Part shown: piece after piece, positions 1-8,006 of the stretch
How positions within the stretch are numbered: the stretch's first letter is position 1
How the letters are laid out: each line of letters opens with the position of its first letter
IMG/VR virus record: IMGVR_UViG_2585427795_000008
Length of the DNA: 8,006 nt
Direction: 5' to 3' (one strand)
Origin: a virus
Taxonomy: Duplodnaviria; Heunggongvirae; Uroviricota; Caudoviricetes
Position numbers and translations under genes: made by a program
Notes under the pieces: generated by a model
Told to the model about the DNA's origin: nothing
The model's database searches: none
Seen by the model: the letters and a program-made list of their open reading frames with translations, nothing else

Positions 1-1143
1 CTATGCTGTTTTGATATCTACGATAATCCAGTCTTTACCACGATCATCATTGTATCGGTCGGTCATTTTTCTGGATTTATGGCCTAACAACTTTTGCGTA
101 TCCAGACCCTGTTCCCGATATAACCGTTCTGACAGAGATCGCTGCTCATGAAATGTGGGCGCAGTTCCTTGCTCCCATTTTATGCCACATTTTTCCCTGG
201 CCTTTTTAAAAGCCGTTGTCAGAGTATTTGCAGAAACCTGGTCTCCTCTGTTTGCTTGAGAGGTAGTGTGACGGTAATGGACCAGATATTTACTAACAAC
301 AGCATCCCTGCACTGAGATATAACTTCACGAAGGGTAATATTCAGAGCATCGCATTTCAGGTTAAGCGGAATAGCAAGTTTTGAACCGGTTTTTTCCTGA
401 GTAATGTGCAACATGTCGTCCCAGATATCAGAGAATTTCAAATTGCAGATATCACCTAAACGTTGTCCAGTAACAAGAGCAAGTAGCATGCCGCATTTTA
501 AATAGGGCTGCCGTCTGCTTACGCTTTCAAATATTGCCTGCCATTCTGGCAGTGACAATCTTTGGCGGTTTACTCGATTTCGCGGTTGTTTTGTTGCCTG
601 CGCTGGGTTAAATCCTGGCGGAACATGTCCTGCGTGTTGTGCTTCTTTGAAGACGTCGATCAACACCATTCTCACGACTTGCGCCATCCTGTTATGACCT
701 TCAGCCTTTACAGCATCAATTATTTCGGCAATATCAAGTGCGGTAATATCCTTGAGGTGTTGCATTCCACAATGCTCACGGAAAAGACGAATGGGTTTGC
801 CTTTTTGCCGATAGGAGTTGGGTCTTAGTTCATTATGTTGCAGCCTGTCCTCCTGGATAGAAATATATTTATCAAGCCATTCTGTCACCGTAATGTCTGA
901 GCGCCTGCCTTTCATTCTTTCCAGACGCTCATTGACGCTTAATATTTGTCTGGTACGTTGTTCAGCAATAATGGTATTTGCTTCAGTAGCAACTTGTTTT
1001 GCTTCATTCTCATCAGTTCCTAAGCTATGAAAACGACCGGATAGTGGATGTTTGTATTGCCAATATACCTTTCCGGTTCGCTTATCTAATTTGCAATATA
1101 AATTGGGTATAGAGATTTTGTGAGATCGGGGTCTAGCAGCCAT
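1..1143 (-). CDS. int: Lambda-family tyrosine recombinase (phage integrase)
   Basis: 380 aa ORF with ATG start. C-terminal region (HEQRSLSERLYREQGLDTQKLLGHKSRKMTDRYNDDRG) aligns by eye with the lambda Int catalytic region (HELRSLSARLY...LLGHKS...YRDDRG), including the conserved His/Arg and the catalytic Tyr. N-terminus resembles the lambda Int arm-binding region. Overlaps xis by 11 bp as in lambda. Confidence 0.93.
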   Translation of the reverse strand: MAARPRSHKISIPNLYCKLDKRTGKVYWQYKHPLSGRFHSLGTDENEAKQVATEANTIIAEQRTRQILSVNERLERMKGRRSDITVTEWLDKYISIQEDRLQHNELRPNSYRQKGKPIRLFREHCGMQHLKDITALDIAEIIDAVKAEGHNRMAQVVRMVLIDVFKEAQHAGHVPPGFNPAQATKQPRNRVNRQRLSLPEWQAIFESVSRRQPYLKCGMLLALVTGQRLGDICNLKFSDIWDDMLHITQEKTGSKLAIPLNLKCDALNITLREVISQCRDAVVSKYLVHYRHTTSQANRGDQVSANTLTTAFKKAREKCGIKWEQGTAPTFHEQRSLSERLYREQGLDTQKLLGHKSRKMTDRYNDDRGKDWIIVDIKTA

Positions 1144-1508: not shown

Positions 1509-1748
1509 CTATTTCCTGCGTATGGCACGTAACTTCTTAATGTGTTCTGCCGTTTCGATCTCTTCTGCTATCCGATCTGCATCAGCTTTATTCACAGGTT
1601 CAAAGTCATGATTAAAGCGGAACATGCTGGCGATACATGTTCTGCCTTTTCGGATGTAGTGAACTTTGTTGTGGGTAGAACGCAGGATTTTGCAGGGAGT
1701 GCCGTGGTGGTCGACGTACCAGGTGTTAGGAAAAATGATTCTGAACAT
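1509..1748 (-). CDS. Hypothetical phage protein (accessory/ea region)
   Basis: 79 aa ORF with ATG start and a GAGGTG SD 6 nt upstream. Same orientation as the int-xis operon. No family recognised from sequence alone. Confidence 0.5.
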   Translation of the reverse strand: MFRIIFPNTWYVDHHGTPCKILRSTHNKVHYIRKGRTCIASMFRFNHDFEPVNKADADRIAEEIETAEHIKKLRAIRRK

Positions 1749-1795
1749 TTTTACACCTCAGTTGGACGATGTTGAAATTTGCTGCTTTGAGGCCA

Positions 1796-2014
1796 TCACA
1801 GTCCCCATTGTTTGTTCTTAAGTTCGATCTCCTCCTGGCAACTTGCACAAGTCCGACAACCCTGAACGGCCAGGCGTCTTCGTTCATCTATCGGATCGCC
1901 ACACTCACAACAATGAGTGGCAGATATAGCCTGGTGGTTCAGGCGGCGCATTTTTATTGCTGTGTTGCGCTGTAATTCTTCAATTCCTGATGCTGAATCA
2001 ATGATGTCTGCCAT
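1796..2014 (-). CDS. TraR/DksA-family C4-type zinc-finger protein (phage TraR-like)
   Basis: 72 aa ORF with a CxxC-(17 aa)-CxxC motif (CCECGDPIDERRRLAVQGCRTCASC), the size and layout typical of TraR/DksA C4 zinc fingers; lambda-like phages carry a TraR homolog (orf73). Confidence 0.8.
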   Translation of the reverse strand: MADIIDSASGIEELQRNTAIKMRRLNHQAISATHCCECGDPIDERRRLAVQGCRTCASCQEEIELKNKQWGL

Positions 2015-2063
2015 CTTTCATTAATCCCTGAATTGTTGGTTAATACGCTTGAGGGTGAATGCG

Positions 2064-2090
2064 AATAATAAAAAAGGAGCCTGTAGCTCC
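2064..2090 (-). terminator. Possible intrinsic terminator (minus strand), or a hairpin inside a small ORF
   Basis: Plus strand GGAGC-CTGTA-GCTCC at 2076-2090; on the minus strand this 5-bp stem hairpin is followed by TTTTTTATTATT. The stem is short and GC-poor. Confidence 0.3.
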
Positions 2091-2112
2091 ATGATGATTT
2101 TGTTTTTCATGC

Positions 2113-2394
2113 TCACCGTTCCTTAAAGACGCCGTTTAACATGCCGATCGCCAGGCTTAAATGAGTCGGTGTGAATCCCATCAGCGTTACCGTTTCGCGG
2201 TGCTTCTTCAGTACGCTACGGCAAATATCATCGACGTTTTTATCCGGGAACTGCTGTCTGGCTTTTTTGATTTCAGAATTAGCCTGACGGGCAATACTGC
2301 GAAGGGCGTTTTCTTGCTGATGTGTCATTGAACAAGTCCCATGTCGGCAAGCATAAGCACACAGAATATGAAGCCCGCTGCCAGAAAAATGCAT
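2113..2394 (-). CDS. Hypothetical protein at the lambda orf61 position
   Basis: 93 aa ORF from an ATG at 2392-2394 with no convincing SD; an internal ATG at 2326-2328 would give 71 aa. Sits between the orf63-like ORF and the TraR-like gene in the same operon orientation. Confidence 0.45.
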   Translation of the reverse strand: MHFSGSGLHILCAYACRHGTCSMTHQQENALRSIARQANSEIKKARQQFPDKNVDDICRSVLKKHRETVTLMGFTPTHLSLAIGMLNGVFKER

Positions 2395-2404
2395 TCAGTG
2401 GTTG

Positions 2405-2596
2405 TCATACCTGGTCTCTCTCATCTGCTTCTGCTTTCGCCACCATCATTTCCAGCTTTTGTGAAAGGGATGCGGCTAACGTATGAAATTCTTCGTCTGT
2501 TTCTACTGGTATTGGCACAAACCTGACTCCAATTTGAGCGAGGCTATGTGCCATCTCAATGCTCGTTCTTAACTCAACAGGAGATGCTTTGTGCAT
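2405..2596 (-). CDS. Lambda orf63-like small protein
   Basis: 63 aa ORF with ATG start and a GGGGAG SD 5 nt upstream. Position (second gene downstream of exo) and sequence match my recollection of lambda orf63. Confidence 0.65.
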   Translation of the reverse strand: MHKASPVELRTSIEMAHSLAQIGVRFVPIPVETDEEFHTLAASLSQKLEMMVAKAEADERDQV

Positions 2597-2757
2597 ACAG
2601 CTCCCCGTTTATTATTTATCTCCTCAGCCAGCCGCTGTGCTTTCAGGGGATTTCGGGTAACAGAAAGGCCGGGAAATACCCAGCCTCGCTTTGTAACGGA
2701 GTAGACGAAAGTGATCGCGCCTACCCGGATATTATCGTGAGGATGCTTCATCGCCAT
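2569..2757 (-). CDS. Lambda orf60a-like small protein
   Basis: 62 aa ORF whose ATG overlaps the exo stop (ATGGCGATGA), indicating translational coupling. Position and sequence match my recollection of lambda orf60a. Confidence 0.65.
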
Positions 2758-3428
2758 TGCTCCCCAAATACAAAACCAATTTCAGCCAGTGCCTCGTCCA
2801 TTTTTTCGATGAACTCCGGCACCATCTCGTCAAAACTCGCCATGTACTTTTCATCCTGCTCAATCACGACATAATGCAGGCCTTCACGCTTCATTCGTGG
2901 GTCATAGTTGGCAAAGTACCAGGCATCTTTTCGCGTCACCCACATGCTGTACTGCACCTGGGCCATGTAAGCCGATTTTATTGCCTCGAAACCACCGAGC
3001 CGGAATTTCATGAAATCCCGGGAGGTAAACGGGCATTTCAGTTCAAGGCCGTTGCCGTCACTGCATAAACCATCGGGAGAGCAGGCGGTGCGCATACTTT
3101 CGTCGCGATAGATGATCGGGGATTCAGTAACATTCACGCCGGAAGTAAACTCAAACAGGGCTCTGGCGTCGTTCTCGTACTGTTTTCCCCAGGCCAGTGC
3201 TTTAGCGTTAACTTCCGGAGCCACACCGGTGCAAACCTCGGCAAGCAGGGTGTGGAAGTAGGACATTTTCATGTCAGGCCACTTCTTTCCTGAGCGGGGC
3301 TTTGCTATCACGTTGTGAACTTCTGAAGCGGTGATGACGCCGAGCCGTAATTTGTGCCATGCATCATCCCCCTGTTCGACAGCTCTCACGTCGATCCCGG
3401 TACGCTGCAGGATAATGTCCGGTGTCAT
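2748..3428 (-). CDS. exo: Lambda exonuclease (Red alpha)
   Basis: 226 aa protein [40 protein letters not shown]... is essentially lambda Exo as I recall it. Start ATG overlaps the bet stop (ATGA). Confidence 0.97.
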
Positions 3429-4210
3429 GCTGCCACCTTCTGCTCAGTGGCTTTCTGTTTCAGGAATCCGAGAGCTTTCACTGCTTCGGCCTGTGTCAGT
3501 TCTGACGATGCGCGAATGTCGCGGCGAAATATCTGGGAACAGAGCGGCAATAAGTCGTCATCCCATGTTTTATCCAGGGCAATCAGCAGAGTGTTAATCT
3601 CCTGCATGGTTTCATCGTTAACCGGAGTGATGTCGCGTTCCGGCTGACGTTCTGCAGTGTATGCGGTATTTTCGACAATGCGCTCGGCTTCATCCTTGTC
3701 ATAGATACCAGCAAATCCGAAGGCCAGACGGGCACACTGAATCATGGCTTTATGACGTAACATCCGTTTGGGATGCGACTGCCACGGCCCCGTGATTTCT
3801 CTGCCTTCGCGGGTTTTGAATGGTTCGCGGCGGCATTCATCCATCCACTCGGTAACGCAGATCGGATGATTGCGGTCCTTGCGGTAAATCCGGCATGTGC
3901 AGGATTCATTGTCCTGCTCAAAGTCCATACCATCAAACTGCTGGTTTTCATTGATGATGCGGGACCAGCCATCAACGCCCACCACCGGAACGATGCCGTT
4001 CTGCTTATCAGGGAAGGCGTAAATTTCTTTCGTCCACGGATTAAGGCCGTACTGGTTGGCGACGATCAACAATGCGATGAACTGCGCATCGCTGGCATCA
4101 CCTTTAAATGCCGTCTGGCGAAGAGTGGTGATCAGTTCCTGTGGGTCGACAGAATCCATGCCGACACGTTCAGCCAGCTTCCCTGCCAGCGTTGCGAGTG
4201 CTGTACTCAT
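3425..4210 (-). CDS. bet: Lambda Bet (Red beta) single-strand annealing protein
   Basis: 261 aa protein [66 protein letters not shown]... matches lambda Bet as I recall it. Confidence 0.97.
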
Positions 4211-4215
4211 CCGTT

Positions 4216-4512
4216 TTATACCTCTGAATCAATATCAACCTGGTGGTGAGCAATGGTTTCAACCATGTACCGGATGTGTTCTGCCATGCGCTCCTGAAAC
4301 TCAACATCGTCATCAAACGCACGGGTAATGGCTTTTTTGCTGGCCCCGTGGCGTTGCAAATGATCGATGCATAGCGATTCAAACAGGTGCTGGGGCAGGC
4401 CTTTTTCCATGTCGTCTGCCAGTTCTGCCTCTTTCTCTTCACGGGCGATCTGCTGGTAGTGACGCGCCCAGCTCTGAGCCTCAAGACGATCCTGAATGTA
4501 ATAAGCGTTCAT
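4216..4512 (-). CDS. gam: Gam (GamS form), RecBCD inhibitor
   Basis: 98 aa protein [60 protein letters not shown]... matches the lambda GamS portion. The in-frame upstream extension hits a stop at 4567-4569 after only 18 codons, so the 138 aa long form is not encoded. Confidence 0.95.
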
Positions 4513-4587
4513 GGCTGAACTCCTGAAAATGGCTGTGAAAATATCGCCCGCGAAATGCCAGGCTGATTAGGAAAACAGGAAAGGGGA

Positions 4588-4998
4588 TTAGTGATTGAGG
4601 CCGTTACCGCGTCCGTCGAGAAAAACTTCCACGAGCAAATCACGGGTATAAGTGCGCTCGATGCCGCGATGCAGATAAAGCCGTCCGCGTAAATTAGCTG
4701 ATGCAGTCCAGGTACCATCTTTGTGTTTGACCAGCATTCCTGGCATGACCGCACCGCGATTAACGGTCTGCGTTCCGTAATGTTGATGAACCATAAAAAC
4801 TCCTGCCCGTAAGCTGGGCTGCTGAACATATAGAGACTTCTGCGCGTATTCAGGCGGTGGATGGCCGCCGGTTGTCATAACTAAGCCGCCTCGTTGAAGC
4901 GACTGAGGTATAAAGTGTTGTGTTGATTTCAGCTGGTCACACCGACGTTCACGCGTCCGTTTCACCCCTCGCACTCCCCGAAGCCTGCTGAAATTCAA
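4588..4998 (-). CDS. Hypothetical protein at the N position (first ORF leftward of PL); start uncertain
   Basis: 136 codon open frame on the operon strand between the predicted PL and gam. The 5'-most start is TTG (4996-4998); internal ATGs at residues 41 and 69. N-terminal stretch is Arg-rich ([15 protein letters not shown]), loosely like the arginine-rich motif of N antiterminators, but the rest shows no similarity I recognise. Confidence 0.35.
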
Positions 4999-5071
4999 AC
5001 TGCGGATCTAAGCGGTCATCGCCACGGTGAAACAGGTGGTTACCGTATCGTTGTGTCGTTGCGATGAATTT

Positions 5072-5100
5072 ATTTAAAACTATAGTTGTTTTATCGTCAA
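5072..5100 (-). promoter_or_regulatory. PL-like early-left promoter
   Basis: Minus strand reads TTGACG (plus 5095-5100), a 17-nt spacer, then TTAAAT (plus 5072-5077). The region is near-identical to the PR promoter/operator (PR: GTTGTTGACTAAAAACAACCATAGTTTTAATCT; PL minus strand: GTTGTTGACGATAAAACAACTATAGTTTTAAATA). Confidence 0.5.
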
Positions 5101-5128
5101 CAACAAAAGTTGTTTTGTCGGTTGTTTT
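5085..5128. promoter_or_regulatory. OL operator cluster (repressor-binding inverted repeats)
   Basis: GTTGTT-N8-AACAAC at 5085-5104, AACAAC-AAAA-GTTGTT at 5099-5114, and a further GTTGTTTT at 5121-5128. Same half-site as the OR palindrome. Confidence 0.5.
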
Positions 5129-5240
5129 AAATATAACTGGTTGTATTTAGGATGGATTTATTTTGTGACTTGCATCGCATAGCGATAACTGAAGTGAGGT
5201 GTGGTGGTTTTTTGGACGGTATGAGTTATGAGGGGGAGGA

Positions 5241-5266
5241 AAAGAAAACCCGGCGCGGTTGCCGGG
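5241..5266 (-). terminator. Intrinsic terminator downstream of the lipoprotein gene (end of the immunity transcript)
   Basis: CCCGGC-GCGGTT-GCCGGG hairpin at 5249-5266; on the minus strand it is followed by TTTTCTTTTCC. Lies 8 nt past the lipoprotein stop codon. Confidence 0.6.
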
Positions 5267-5274
5267 TATGATTA

Positions 5275-5655
5275 TCAGTCAGCCCAACCTGATTTCGAGT
5301 TTATTTGGGTTTCTGACATTGTGTATTTCTTAATCGTGTCATCGTTAAAAAGAATAGTAAGTTCTTTTTTCGTACCGTTCGTTCCATTATGGAATAATCC
5401 ATAGAATGGAATAAAAGTGGTGCCATTAACTTTTACTTTTGCAAAGGCGTACTTCCAGATCTCGTTTCCACTGTCAGTATATGAAACAGCATCAGGAGAA
5501 CCAAAGTAAGATTTAACCTCATTCTTGGTTGTTTTACCTTCCTGAAGTTTAGACTGGACACTAATTTCAGTTTCATTTTTGAGTTGCTGGTTGCCTGAAG
5601 AAGCACACCCAGCCAATACAGATGCCATCATGGCAGCGATTAGGATTTTTCTCAT
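5275..5655 (-). CDS. Prophage lipoprotein with BamE/SmpA-OmlA-like domain, at the rex position
   Basis: 126 aa ORF with ATG start. Signal peptide MRKILIAAMMASVLAGC has a lipobox (LAG|C). Mature domain motifs GKTTKNEVKSYFGSPDAVSYTDSGNEIWKYAF and ELTILFNDDTIKKY resemble the BamE pattern (GMTQQQVAYALGTP...GTNTWFYVF...TLTLTFNSSGV). Region 5270-5880 is markedly AT-rich compared with its flanks. Confidence 0.8.
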   Translation of the reverse strand: MRKILIAAMMASVLAGCASSGNQQLKNETEISVQSKLQEGKTTKNEVKSYFGSPDAVSYTDSGNEIWKYAFAKVKVNGTTFIPFYGLFHNGTNGTKKELTILFNDDTIKKYTMSETQINSKSGWAD

Positions 5656-5884
5656 TTTATGTTTCCATTCATTATAATCAGAAACATCTTAACATAATGA
5701 TTCGAAATAAAAACCGCTACGAGATAGGGGGACATTTTGCTGACAGTAGCAACAAATCTCAGCTAACAACGAGAATATTTACTGAAATATGCAAACAGAT
5801 TTGGCGTTCTTATAGAGAATTTAGTGCAATATCTAATCCGAGTGGTATAAACCTTAACCTTCGCTCCCTTAAGTCGTAGATAAA

Positions 5885-6574
5885 TTAACCATGCTTCCTG
5901 TACGTCTGCGGCATGCTTCCAATGACCTTACCGAATATGAACACCCGGTTCATCTCGTCTTTCTCGATCGGGTCCCACGGCGAGTAGCTCTTGTTATCAG
6001 AGATAACCAGCAGCTTATCCTTCATCATTTGAAGACGTTTTACATGGGCAGTGTCGTCGTACAGAAACGCATAGATGCCATCACCGTCGAAAGATTTAAC
6101 AGTGATATCAACGAACAGCAGGTCACCTGGTTCGATCGTCCCTGACATGCTGTCACCTCGCACGTTAATGATGCGGATATTTTCCGCCTTCCTGCCATCG
6201 AACATGTGACGAGCATCGTCAAACGAGTACTCAACCGAGCGTAGAACTTCTACAAACTCACGGTTGATTACACCTGGCCCGGCACTGACTTCTATATCAA
6301 GAACGTCAATTTTGAAGTATTTGGAATGGCTGACAGTTGATTGTATTGGTTGCACTGTACTGTCTGACATATTTCCAACGCCAGAAGATAACCATTCTGC
6401 GCGCACACCCAAAGCGTTCGCGATCTCCACGATTTTAGTTGTTTGGTTAGCTTTCCCTGTTTCGATTTTCTGAATAGCAGCTTGGCTAACCCCGACCAAA
6501 TCCCCAAGCGCCTTTTGTGTAAGGCCTCGCGCTAATCTGGCTTCTTTAAGTCTTTCTGAGAGTGTTGTTTTCAT
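5885..6574 (-). CDS. cI-type prophage repressor (XRE HTH plus S24 LexA-like autopeptidase domain)
   Basis: 229 aa ORF. N-terminal HTH (LTQKALGDLVGVSQAAIQKIETGK), Ala-Gly candidate cleavage site (VSAGPG), and C-terminal S24 motifs (RGDSMSGTIEPGDLLFVD with the Ser, and a VKRL Lys). Divergent from the cro-like gene across an operator region. Not lambda cI by sequence. Confidence 0.92.
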   Translation of the reverse strand: MKTTLSERLKEARLARGLTQKALGDLVGVSQAAIQKIETGKANQTTKIVEIANALGVRAEWLSSGVGNMSDSTVQPIQSTVSHSKYFKIDVLDIEVSAGPGVINREFVEVLRSVEYSFDDARHMFDGRKAENIRIINVRGDSMSGTIEPGDLLFVDITVKSFDGDGIYAFLYDDTAHVKRLQMMKDKLLVISDNKSYSPWDPIEKDEMNRVFIFGKVIGSMPQTYRKHG

Positions 6575-6580
6575 AGATCA

Positions 6581-6609
6581 AATGTACAACCAAGGTTTTA
6601 TTTCATCAA
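6581..6609 (-). promoter_or_regulatory. Candidate PRM-like maintenance promoter for the repressor
   Basis: Minus strand TTGATG (plus 6604-6609), 17-nt spacer, TACATT (plus 6581-6586), ending about 6 nt before the repressor ATG. This would give a near-leaderless transcript as for lambda PRM. Confidence 0.35.
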
Positions 6610-6615
6610 ACGAAA

Positions 6616-6640
6616 ATGGTTGTTGACTAAAAACAACCAT
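6616..6640. promoter_or_regulatory. OR operator (perfect 9-bp inverted repeat)
   Basis: ATGGTTGTT-GACTAAA-AACAACCAT, overlapping the PR -35. Same half-site as the OL copies. Confidence 0.6.
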
Positions 6641-6651
6641 AGTTTTAATCT
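6623..6651 (+). promoter_or_regulatory. PR-like early-right promoter
   Basis: TTGACT (6623-6628), 17-nt spacer, TAATCT (6646-6651). Followed by a GGAGG SD and the cro-like ATG at 6679. Confidence 0.6.
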
Positions 6652-6678
6652 TGATTCGGATTAACCACGGAGGTTGTT

Positions 6679-6909
6679 ATGAACCCAGCAATCAAAACAG
6701 CGATCAATATCGTTGGTTCACAAAAGAAACTAGGCGATGCCTGCGAAGTTTCACAGCAGGCCGTCTATAAGTGGCTTCACAACAAAGCAAAGGTATCCCC
6801 TGAACATGTCGGCAGCATTGTTACGGCTACTGGTGGAGTTGTGAAGGCATACCAGATTCGCCCGGATCTTCCGAAGTTGTTTCCACACACCGAAAAGAAC
6901 GCAGCTTAA
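6679..6909 (+). CDS. Cro-like HTH regulator (YdaS/Cro family)
   Basis: 76 aa ORF with ATG and a GGAGG SD, divergent from the repressor. HTH-like segment (KLGDACEVSQQAVYKWLHNK) typical of Cro/YdaS-type proteins. Confidence 0.85.
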   Translation: MNPAIKTAINIVGSQKKLGDACEVSQQAVYKWLHNKAKVSPEHVGSIVTATGGVVKAYQIRPDLPKLFPHTEKNAA

Positions 6910-6921
6910 ATTTCCATTTCA

Positions 6922-6934
6922 CGCTCTTTAACAA
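6922..6934 (+). promoter_or_regulatory. boxA-like element (nutR position)
   Basis: CGCTCTTTAACAA lies between the cro-like and YdaT-like genes. It matches the boxA consensus of lambda nut sites (CGCTCTTA) and rrn operons (TGCTCTTTAACAA). No clear boxB hairpin follows. Confidence 0.45.
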
Positions 6935-6978
6935 TAAGCAATCAACTTAACAGTCAATTCAAACTAAAGGAGTCAATT

Positions 6979-7518
6979 ATGCAACCACTTACATACCAAC
7001 AGACTAGCGGATTTATTCCGACTGCGGTGATAAATCGTTCTCAAACAAAACAAGCTCCAGGCCACGAAAAAATCCGTGATGCCGTCCGCGCCTGGTCGGC
7101 TGTAGATAATCAGGATGTCGTTGCCGCACTCATTGTGAATGAGTATCGGGAGCAGGGCGACGGCACCATCGATTTCCCTGATGATGTCAGCCGTGCACGC
7201 CAGAAGCTGTTCCGCTTCCTCGATAACAAATTCGATTCTGAAAAATACCGAAATAACGTGCGTGAACTGACCCCGGCAATTCTGGCGGTACTACCGCTGG
7301 AATATCGCGGTTACCTGGTTGAGCAGGATAGCTTCATGACTCGGTTGGCTGAAATGGAAAAGGAACTCAGTGAGGCAAAACAGGCTGTCATTCTCAACGC
7401 ACCACGCCACCAGAAACTGAAGGAAATGAGTGAAGGTATTGTGTCGATGTTTCGTGTGGACCCGGATCTGGCTGGTCCATTAATGGCGATGGTGACCACC
7501 ATGCTGGGGGCAATATGA
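6979..7518 (+). CDS. YdaT-like protein at the cII position
   Basis: 179 aa ORF with ATG and an AAGGAG SD. The segment LTPAILAVLPLEYRGYL resembles E. coli Rac YdaT (IPAILAILPRELRHRL) as I recall it; NEYREQGDGTIDFP resembles EEYLRQGGGELPLVP. Not lambda cII. Confidence 0.75.
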   Translation: MQPLTYQQTSGFIPTAVINRSQTKQAPGHEKIRDAVRAWSAVDNQDVVAALIVNEYREQGDGTIDFPDDVSRARQKLFRFLDNKFDSEKYRNNVRELTPAILAVLPLEYRGYLVEQDSFMTRLAEMEKELSEAKQAVILNAPRHQKLKEMSEGIVSMFRVDPDLAGPLMAMVTTMLGAI

Positions 7519-7544
7519 CAGGTTCAGAAATGGCGAAAGTCGGT

Positions 7545-7577
7545 CTGCGGGAACAGAACCGACTTTCAGGTGCAAAT
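7545..7577 (+). other. Strong hairpin (10-bp perfect inverted repeat) downstream of the YdaT-like gene
   Basis: GAAAGTCGGT (7545-7554), 13-nt loop, ACCGACTTTC (7568-7577). The stem extends to about 13 bp with one bulge. No T-run follows; the IS903-group end begins 11 nt later. Confidence 0.5.
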
Positions 7578-7588
7578 CGGCTTTGTTG

Positions 7589-8006
7589 AATAAATCAGAT
7601 TTCGGGTAAGTCTCCCCCGTAGCGGGTTGTGTTTTCAGGCAATACGCACGCTTTCAGGCATACCTGCTTTCGTCATTTTGTTCAGCGCTCGTACCAGGGC
7701 CATAGCCTCCGCAACCTGACCATCGTAGTCACGCAGCGTCAGTGAACCCCCGAACAGCTGTTTTACCCGGTACATCGCCGTTTCCGCTATCGAGCGACGG
7801 TTGTAATCTGTTGTCCATTTCCACCGCGCATTACTCCCGGTCATTCGCTGATTAGCCACTGCACGGTTACGGTCTGCATATTCACCGGGCCAGTAACCCG
7901 CACCTTTTCGGGGAGGGATAAGGGCGCTGATTTTCTTACGCCGCAGTTCATCGTGACAGAGCCGGGTGTCGTAAGCGCCGTCTGCCGATGCTGCCCTGAT
8001 TTTTCT
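7589..8006 (-). mobile_element. IS903-group (IS5 family) insertion sequence, partial; continues past the window end
   Basis: Terminal inverted repeat GGCTTTGTTGAATAAATC at 7589-7606 matches the IS903 end as I recall it. It is followed by the C-terminal part of a transposase on the minus strand. Confidence 0.8.
7635..8006 (-). CDS. IS903-group transposase, C-terminal fragment (N-terminus lies outside the window)
   Basis: Frame is open from the window edge: ...RKISAASADGAYDTRLCHDELRRKKISALIPPRKGAGYWPGEYADRNRAVANQRMTGSNARWKWTTDYNRRSIAETAMYRVKQLFGGSLTLRDYDGQVAEAMALVRALNKMTKAGMPESVRIA. This is the typical IS903-group C-terminus. The ORF track shows only the part from an internal Met (7635..7859). 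Confidence 0.88.
   Translation of the reverse strand, partial: RKIRAASADGAYDTRLCHDELRRKKISALIPPRKGAGYWPGEYADRNRAVANQRMTGSNARWKWTTDYNRRSIAETAMYRVKQLFGGSLTLRDYDGQVAEAMALVRALNKMTKAGMPESVRIA

Follow-up and report, generated by a model that had tools for sequence, protein, structure and literature searches.

What is encoded by the long reading frame that lies between the early-left promoter (PL) and gam, where a lambdoid phage would be expected to carry N, cIII and kil? The question arises in the 8,006-nucleotide (nt) viral DNA IMGVR_UViG_2585427795_000008, hereafter the window (the whole stretch that was analysed), which is the immunity and early-left region of a lambdoid prophage. On its minus strand a frame stays open from TTG 4998 to the stop codon at 4588–4590, and a first-pass annotation, made from the letters alone, read it as a 136-amino-acid (aa) protein with an arginine-rich N-terminus and no recognisable relatives. 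The present analysis instead favours, with a probability of about 0.88, the reading that the 136-codon frame is an over-extension and that the gene is its last 68 codons, encoding a Kil protein of the Rac/phi80 type. The features that carry this reading are the following.

4588–4998, minus strand: the frame under study.
4588–4794, minus strand: kil coding sequence, 68 codons plus TAA, recognised by PHROG 294, NCBIfam, BLASTP and its codon-position pattern.
4800–4804, minus strand: Shine-Dalgarno sequence (SD) AGGAG, 5 nt upstream of ATG 4794 and kept in all window-type relatives.
4795–4998, minus strand: in-frame open stretch, source of the 136-aa (TTG 4998) and 96-aa (ATG 4878) versions, judged to be untranslated leader.

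As first described, this is the sole substantial frame between PL and gam: no other minus-strand frame of at least 20 aa is present, bar an overlapping open reading frame (ORF) of 106 aa (4509–4829) that is out of frame with it and finds no homologues in Pfam, NCBIfam and PHROG scans. An open run of 136 codons is unremarkable here, as several antisense frames of the window are longer and clearly spurious, one of 158 aa at 3773–4249 among them. The long ORF is an artefact of a leader that happens to stay open.

Identity and start codon of the kil gene

The C-terminal half of the frame, in which no similarity had been recognised, is kil, and residues 69–136 match the Kil/KilR family. Specifically, PHROG 294 ("Kil protein for bacterial septation inhibition") matches residues 60–136 of the long frame with an E-value of 2.4e-38, and NCBIfam NF008465 (PRK11354, "FtsZ inhibitor protein") places residues 69–136 on profile positions 1–70 (E = 9e-17). 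In BLASTP the 68-aa product aligns with Rac KilR from Met1 to Met1 at 36% identity (E = 9e-13) and with phi80 Kil at 41% identity (E = 5e-16); the Kil copies of HK225, SEN34 and Klebsiella phage are 71–79% identical to it. An exhaustive HMMER search gathers 66 representative clusters of Kil relatives at E ≤ 1e-3, within a family of about 62–79 aa that shares the conserved N-terminus M-x-x-H-[YF]-G-T. Similarity along the whole protein, its size and N-terminus, and a PL-operon location promoter-proximal to the recombination genes agree in identifying the 68-aa product as a member of the Rac KilR/phi80 Kil family. The earlier statement that no kil equivalent is evident is therefore wrong, and the proposal of a regulator or host-takeover protein of unknown type survives in one part: host takeover stands, in the form of a predicted cell-division inhibitor, and the unknown type falls, since the family is that of Rac KilR and phi80 Kil, together with the idea of a new regulator.

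The gene is already known and annotated, Kil being present in thousands of E. coli prophages. Phage records label the same DNA Kil, once "phi80 Kil homolog", and the annotations vary in length (68, 77, 96, 125 or 139 aa) and in name ("Kil", "hypothetical protein", even "membrane carboxypeptidase"). The local Pfam library returns no family for either the 136-aa or the 68-aa product; Kil relatives in a large protein database carry the precomputed Pfam accession PF27398, which is absent from the library searched, and current Pfam seems to have a family for them under this accession. PADLOC gives no defence-system match, and a PDB sequence search finds no solved relative of Kil.

The start codon of kil is ATG 4794, because four lines of evidence agree: the lengths of homologues, the AGGAG sequence, the substitution patterns, and the broken frames in relatives together with the PGAP annotation. 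The Kil homologues of HK225, HK639, phi80 and SEN34 are 68–69 aa long in unrelated upstream contexts, and diverged cluster representatives from the HMMER search (39–58% identity) are 62–79 aa long and align from residues 1–3. Among 37 distinct full-length relatives, the 68 kil codons contain 26 variable sites, distributed 2/5/19 over the three codon positions (chi-square p = 7e-5); 19 changes are synonymous and 8 non-synonymous. The 68 codons upstream contain 30 variable sites spread 10/9/11 (p = 0.9), with 9 synonymous and 19 non-synonymous changes, one stop-creating substitution and four frameshifting indels (after 4969, 4927 and 4800, and at 4841–4840); the contrast between the two halves is significant (Fisher p = 0.007). 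In addition, HK225 has two in-frame stops in the homologous stretch ahead of its kil ATG, PhiR30_1 has an extra T (+1) between the SD and the kil ATG, and this leader, present in 2,225 of 5,426 complete E. coli genomes, bears no RefSeq/PGAP annotation over 4795–5065 in any of them. The extension 4795–4998 is thus non-coding, untranslated leader, and the TTG start with its 136-aa product finds no support, as its upstream 68 codons evolve as non-coding DNA and relatives carry frameshifts and stops in them. The proposal that the early-left transcript has its first gene in this frame holds, and of the two internal-start versions that had been suggested (96 and 68 aa) the 68-aa one is correct by BLASTP and by the start-codon evidence.

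The "Kil" label of PhiR30_1 (L012, 1861–2067) sits on a leader-starting frame shifted by the +1 T and is not the real kil. In phage D2 (L013, 1688–1980) a lambda-type 47-aa kil replaces most of the KilR-type gene, and a 42-aa ORF over the leader (1852–1980) is labelled "prophage Kil protein". The viral contig L087 has ATT where the kil ATG stands elsewhere.

Proposed action and closest Kil proteins

Upon induction, the cI-type repressor would leave the PL operators and PL would fire near 5065; its transcript would cross an untranslated leader of about 270 nt and reach kil as the first translated cistron. By analogy with Rac KilR, Kil is predicted to disturb FtsZ-ring assembly and would block host division during expression of gam-bet-exo and the remaining early-left genes, and it may also affect MreB. 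KilR itself is a dual FtsZ/MreB inhibitor whose C-terminal tail is required, with a length-dependent effect and mislocalised MreB (PMC12482147), and it arrests division once Rho/NusG silencing is lifted (PMC5793797). A KilR variant lacking its last three residues still blocks division and no longer rounds cells (PMC12482147). Because the 9-residue tail of the window Kil approaches the length of that variant, one may guess that it acts mainly on FtsZ.

Rac KilR (b1352, 73 aa, E. coli K-12) is among the closest known counterparts. It is homologous over its full length at 36% identity, shares the motifs H-[YF]-G-T, PG, ASAN, LY and VF, is likewise a small early-left protein encoded upstream of recombination genes, and likewise follows a long 5' untranslated region (UTR) with an RNA element, KilS in the case of Rac. 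The window Kil differs in length (68 versus 73 aa), and in tail and profile score as detailed below; the Rac kilR leader is unrelated in sequence to the window leader, and no KilS similarity is seen by eye. The Kil proteins of phi80 (PHI80_42, 69 aa) and of HK225, HK639 and SEN34 (68 aa) belong to PHROG 294 and to the same length class. HK225 further carries the same RNA cassette, described in the next section, ahead of kil, whereas phi80 and HK639 have other genes after the cassette and their kil further downstream, overlapping the end of the preceding gene; phi80 has N and HK639 has putL, neither of which is found in the window. Lambda Kil (47 aa) occupies the same slot, directly on the promoter side of gam, and is reported to inhibit FtsZ-dependent division, but it has no detectable sequence similarity to the window Kil and is an analogue, not a homologue. 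Unlike KilR, lambda Kil leaves MreB undisturbed (PMC12482147). The annotation is thereby corrected to a lambdoid group that carries kil as the first PL cistron, of the Rac/phi80 type and not of the lambda type, and that is without N, cIII and put.

A few points weigh against this assignment or against its functional reach. On NF008465 the protein scores 60.8 bits, below the curated cut-off of 92 bits, and is in that sense a relative of the KilR subfamily and not a member. Gene callers often choose the 96-aa form, one cluster of which has 472 member sequences, and in about 44 of about 50 window-type copies nothing interrupts the frame between ATG 4878 and kil, which could mean use of that start rather than shared ancestry. 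The function is extrapolated from Rac KilR at the 36% identity given above. Finally, because tail length modulates KilR activity and the tail after the conserved VFL motif has 9 residues in the window Kil versus 12 in KilR (manual count), the target may be FtsZ alone or both FtsZ and MreB.

The PL leader and its RNA cassette

With the gene itself ordinary, the remaining interest of the locus is its conserved leader RNA, whose features are listed here.

5072–5100, minus strand: PL promoter core, with −35 hexamer TTGACG (5100–5095), −10 hexamer TTAAAT (5077–5072) and a 17-nt spacer, aligning with the core of the rightward promoter PR (6624–6650).
5075–5114: operator-like palindromes (AACAAC n4 GTTGTT), overlapping PL.
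4795–5065, minus strand: PL-transcript leader ahead of kil, some 270 nt long; it holds no further minus-strand ORF of 20 aa or more, no Rfam match and no put-like RNA.
4876–4912, minus strand: hairpin H1, with interrupted stem UAUA-C-CU-C-AGUCGC / GCGGCU-U-AG-U-UAUG and loop UUCAACGAG; AUG 4878–4876 lies inside the basal helix.
4853–4869, minus strand: hairpin H2, GGCGG-CCAUCCA-CCGCC, nearly invariant, with no U-run after it in the window.
4805–4819, minus strand: H3, a small hairpin (GCCC-AGCUUAC-GGGC) immediately next to the kil SD, which forms the 3' module of the cassette.

The PL of the first-pass annotation is real: its core aligns with that of PR, operator-like palindromes occur at both promoters, and the boundary at which relatives diverge fits. 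The AACAACnnnnGTTGTT operator-like palindromes are confined to 5075–5114 and 6609–6678, with 5 matches versus 0.4 expected by chance. A consensus promoter scan missed PL, since it accepts only −10 hexamers whose second letter is A. Across 5160–5065 heteroimmune relatives cannot be aligned; from ~5062 downward they are about 97% identical, and because conservation begins there we infer a PL transcript start near 5065, with which the hexamer positions are consistent. The promoter-proximal leader (4917–5065) is G-rich and at least 93% identical across heteroimmune phages, namely 16 phage records of one phage group, and no diverged homologues of it are found beyond those 16 phages. In a check for Rho utilisation, the cassette half of the leader is mildly C-rich, with 31–33% C versus 19–24% G.

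The 3' part of the leader (~4800–4912) is a two-hairpin cassette common to many lambdoid phages. From 5' to 3' it consists of CAUAC; H1, with a variable stem and the conserved loop UUYAnnGAG; UUAUGACAACC; and H2. A variable linker then leads to GAAGUCUUGU..., which is followed by a small G+C hairpin, the SD and the start codon of whichever gene comes next. At the H3 site three module types with different G+C stems of 3–4 base pairs (bp) occur, and the alignment there is not in register. The H1 stem covaries strongly: over 52 cassettes, 7 of 8 pairs are changed on both sides and 96% of cells are paired, with 101 double-change cells versus 28 ± 4 in shuffles and 28–55% pairing in slid controls, and RNAalifold extends H1 by a CAUA/UAUG basal helix. 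The window's own 65 nt spanning H1 and H2 adopt the same fold at −23 kcal/mol (z = −3.6). The leader as a whole folds no better than shuffled sequence (z = +0.3), and only the H1–H2 segment stands out.

From ~4912 on, the cassette matches phages that otherwise have no relationship to the window in this region: HK225 at 60 of 62 positions, HK639 at 40 of 47 and phi80 at 28 of 28, the last with different flanks and downstream genes and located after the terminator tL1A. Copies were gathered by exact-match pattern scans, which yielded hundreds from viral contigs and which explain part of the constancy of H2; further copies lie in Citrobacter, Enterobacter, Scandinavium, Huaxiibacter and Trabulsiella genomes. 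Among 200 distinct cassettes, 159 stand directly after a terminator U-run, and at least 25 different small early-left genes follow 57–84 nt after the cassette, kil in about 15%. Part of the HK639 cassette is annotated as a terminator. In the window, H2 does not have the form of an intrinsic terminator: it is followed by UGAAUACGCG, the terminator scan of the window does not list it, and a U-run after H2 (at least 4 T within 8 nt) occurs in only 15 of the 200. A cmscan search against Rfam gives no match at E ≤ 1 anywhere in the window, and a full-text literature search for the H2 sequence found no paper.

These features make it somewhat probable, judging from sequence and predicted fold, that the H1–H2 cassette works as an RNA module, in cis or in trans, in the early-left operons of lambdoid phages, a view that complements the kil reading. 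It may plausibly serve as a hairpin for processing or for stabilising 5' ends, give rise to an Hfq-type small RNA (sRNA), or control translation of the following gene. Several observations argue for such a module: the 28-nt core is 100% identical in phi80 despite differing flanks and downstream genes; the spacing and the position after a terminator U-run are kept ahead of many different genes; the covarying H1 ends its conserved loop in GAG; and the cassette is retained where the short reading frame within it is destroyed. Moreover, the Rac sRNA KilS lies in the kilR 5' UTR (PMC8175672), and between ral and ea10 of lambda stands a hairpin with the H1 loop (UUCCAACGAG), whose distance of 88 nt to the tL2a U-run equals the reported size of LPR1/PreS (bioRxiv 10.1101/2024.10.31.621285). 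On the other side, H2 never varies and so gains no covariation support, its constancy coming partly from the exact-match collection; part of the high identity could stem from phages having recently recombined, the cassette serving them as a shared "linker"; the window H2 is without the U-run needed by an sRNA 3' end or a terminator; and Rfam has no family for the cassette.

The lambda hairpin (34011–34042; L331 1312–1343, minus strand) has an 11-bp stem below its H1-type loop and shares 16 identical nt with one variant of H1. Its 3' base lies 88 nt before the end of the tL2a U-run, and 88 nt is the reported size of the Hfq-dependent sRNA LPR1/PreS (bioRxiv 10.1101/2024.10.31.621285), and the hairpin may mark or create the PreS 5' end. 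The LPR1/PreS–tL2a region resembles the cassette as an intergenic early-left RNA in which an H1-like loop is followed by a G+C hairpin and then by the SD of the next gene, whereas the PreS body and terminator hairpin are unlike H2 and the linker in sequence and the window H2 has no U-run. A broader and more tentative reading, which at present falls somewhat short of an even chance, makes the cassette a member of an undescribed family of structured RNA modules in lambdoid early-left operons, composed of a UUYAnnGAG-loop hairpin, the invariant H2 and an SD-proximal hairpin, usually placed after the first terminator and before the following accessory gene, with the PreS-flanking hairpin of lambda as a relative. 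Such modules would determine where distal early-left messages begin, how stable they are or how they are translated, or would release an sRNA. What stands before at least 25 unrelated early-left genes is, in sum, a covarying RNA cassette of 60–115 nt common to many enterobacterial prophages, absent from Rfam and bearing either a "terminator" label or no annotation in the HK639 and phi80 records. If it does control early-left processing, stability or translation, or yields an sRNA as the neighbouring lambda region does, the induction of temperate phages in Enterobacteriaceae would have in it a general regulatory part.

Further ideas were set aside. A pseudoknot between the H1 loop and GCGUUGAAG shows no consistent covariation by eye. 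A role as GcvB sponge, suggested by the CA-rich AAUCAACACAACAC (4910–4928) and the anti-sRNA AgvB, finds no evidence, the anti-sRNAs being unrelated and located 3' of PR' (PMC4104026). The Pas sRNAs are not relatives, their loci being unrelated (bioRxiv 10.64898/2026.05.13.724894).

The cassette also bears on whether a longer Kil is made. An N-terminally extended isoform of 96 aa would start at ATG 4878 if the short upstream frame of the cassette had lost its stop and now ran in frame into kil. In phi80, HK225 and HK639 the same ATG indeed opens a frame of 20–21 codons that ends at a TAA within the cassette, and in the window type this TAA is missing, so that the frame runs on into kil in the roughly 44 of 50 copies noted above; gene callers pick ATG 4878, and L087 has its ATT in place of the kil ATG. 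Such an isoform is nevertheless improbable. AUG 4878 is paired in the basal helix of H1 (CAUA/UAUG), and the sole SD-like sequence before it, GAGG, is separated from it by about 10 nt that include part of H1. In an unbiased sample, gathered by way of the 3' module, indels of 1–2 nt between H1 and H2 shift the short frame, and the L142 cassette lacks an ATG altogether, which means that the peptide is not conserved; L142 still has a 15-bp H1 with the same loop, together with H2. The frame is also broken in PhiR30_1 and in the L131-type linker, and Kil homologues elsewhere are without the extension.

The short frame (MTTGGHPPP...) was also considered as a leader peptide, with several linkers of length 1 mod 3 (manual count) keeping the frame to a common ...EVLY stop. 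As the main explanation it was rejected on account of the frame-shifting 1–2-nt indels, the absence of ATG from L142, the reading of conserved downstream bases in different frames in phi80 and HK639, and the position of the AUG in the H1 helix.

Far less probable still is a full 136-aa protein from TTG 4998, with the arginine-rich N-terminus as an N-type RNA-binding motif fused to another domain. The frame is open, the stretch KRTRERR superficially resembles N arginine-rich motifs, N is not in its usual place, and a boxA-like CGCTCTTTAACAA lies downstream of cro (6922–6934). However, residues 1–59 match no Pfam, NCBIfam or PHROG family; in BLASTP the arginine-rich stretch is not aligned to lambda N and phi80 N gives no alignment; no SD is seen ahead of TTG 4998; and the 5' leader is confined to one phage group, with no diverged homologues beyond it. 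The non-coding substitutions, the frameshifting indels after 4969 and 4927, the stop-creating substitution and the +1 frameshift of PhiR30_1 all fall against an N-type protein. The arginine-rich stretch lies in the G-rich part of the leader (38% G), and this "N-terminus" is the conceptual translation of that part. The likeness to N motifs drawn in the first-pass annotation is accordingly not borne out.

Equally remote is an HK022-type put antiterminator RNA in the leader. Such an RNA would account for the lack of N, its place directly after PL would be that of putL in HK022 and HK639, and GAAACGGACGCG...CGUCGGUG loosely resembles the putL start, but a put covariance model finds nothing in the window leader, its best window hits (E ~6) lying inside coding regions, and the leader as a whole folds no better than shuffles. 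This model, built from 15 put RNAs, recovers HK022 putL at 97 bits, HK639 putL at 89 bits and HK022 putR at 50 bits. The cassette does share with the put RNAs of HK022 and HK639 a setting just downstream of PL, occurrence in a phage without N and a two-hairpin form of about 60–70 nt; it differs in that the put model does not match, and from lambda N/nut in that no N homologue is present and no boxB-like hairpin is seen. Contigs found by the put RNA pattern often carry the H1–H2 cassette as well, 0.5–1.4 kb further down the operon (HK639, L005, at 570–695 and 1727–1773; L033, L047, L049, L132, L143, L153, L155, L156, L159 and L163), and because the two co-occur on the same contigs they are distinct elements. 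N, cIII and put RNA are absent from this window. The absence of N and cIII had been noted at the outset, and it holds: no N gene is in its usual place, and for cIII, in lambda a small ORF of about 54 aa between N and kil, 4795–5274 offers no other minus-strand ORF of at least 20 aa.

Genomic setting of the window

Beyond the locus itself, the gene order PL–leader–kil–gam–bet–exo is embedded in the following features.

1–1143, minus strand: int.
Between int and exo, minus strand: xis, then several small genes.
2748–3428, minus strand: exo.
3425–4210, minus strand: bet.
4216–4512, minus strand: gam (Pfam Gam, E = 3e-65).
5275–5655, minus strand: lipoprotein gene at the rex position, 126 aa (PHROG 3135, E = 3e-48).
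5885–6574, minus strand: S24/helix-turn-helix repressor of cI type.
6679–6909, plus strand: YdaS-type cro.
6979–7518, plus strand: YdaT-type gene.

Escherichia phage PhiR26_1 is 99.97% identical to window positions 1519–7579. The lipoprotein gene at the rex position, located between cI and PL, has its own terminator (5248–5267), and its BamE-domain match is weak, below the Pfam cut-off. Related phages with the same leader carry wholly different genes at this position, HipA-type toxin modules among them, and the rex position behaves like a swappable "moron" slot expressed in the lysogen.

On the plus strand, CGCTCTTTAACAA (6922–6934) lies in the 69-nt gap between cro and the YdaT-like gene. We take it to be a close match to the rrn-type boxA consensus; no boxB-like hairpin is seen after it. 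It may recruit the host Nus complex to the rightward transcript.

At 7579 the PhiR26_1 match ends and an IS903 match begins, which extends to 8006 with 97% identity to the HK022 copy; the minus-strand ORF 7635–7859 falls inside the IS903 match. Replication gene O, which starts at ~7515, is interrupted about 60 nt from its start, and because of this insertion the prophage is probably replication-defective.

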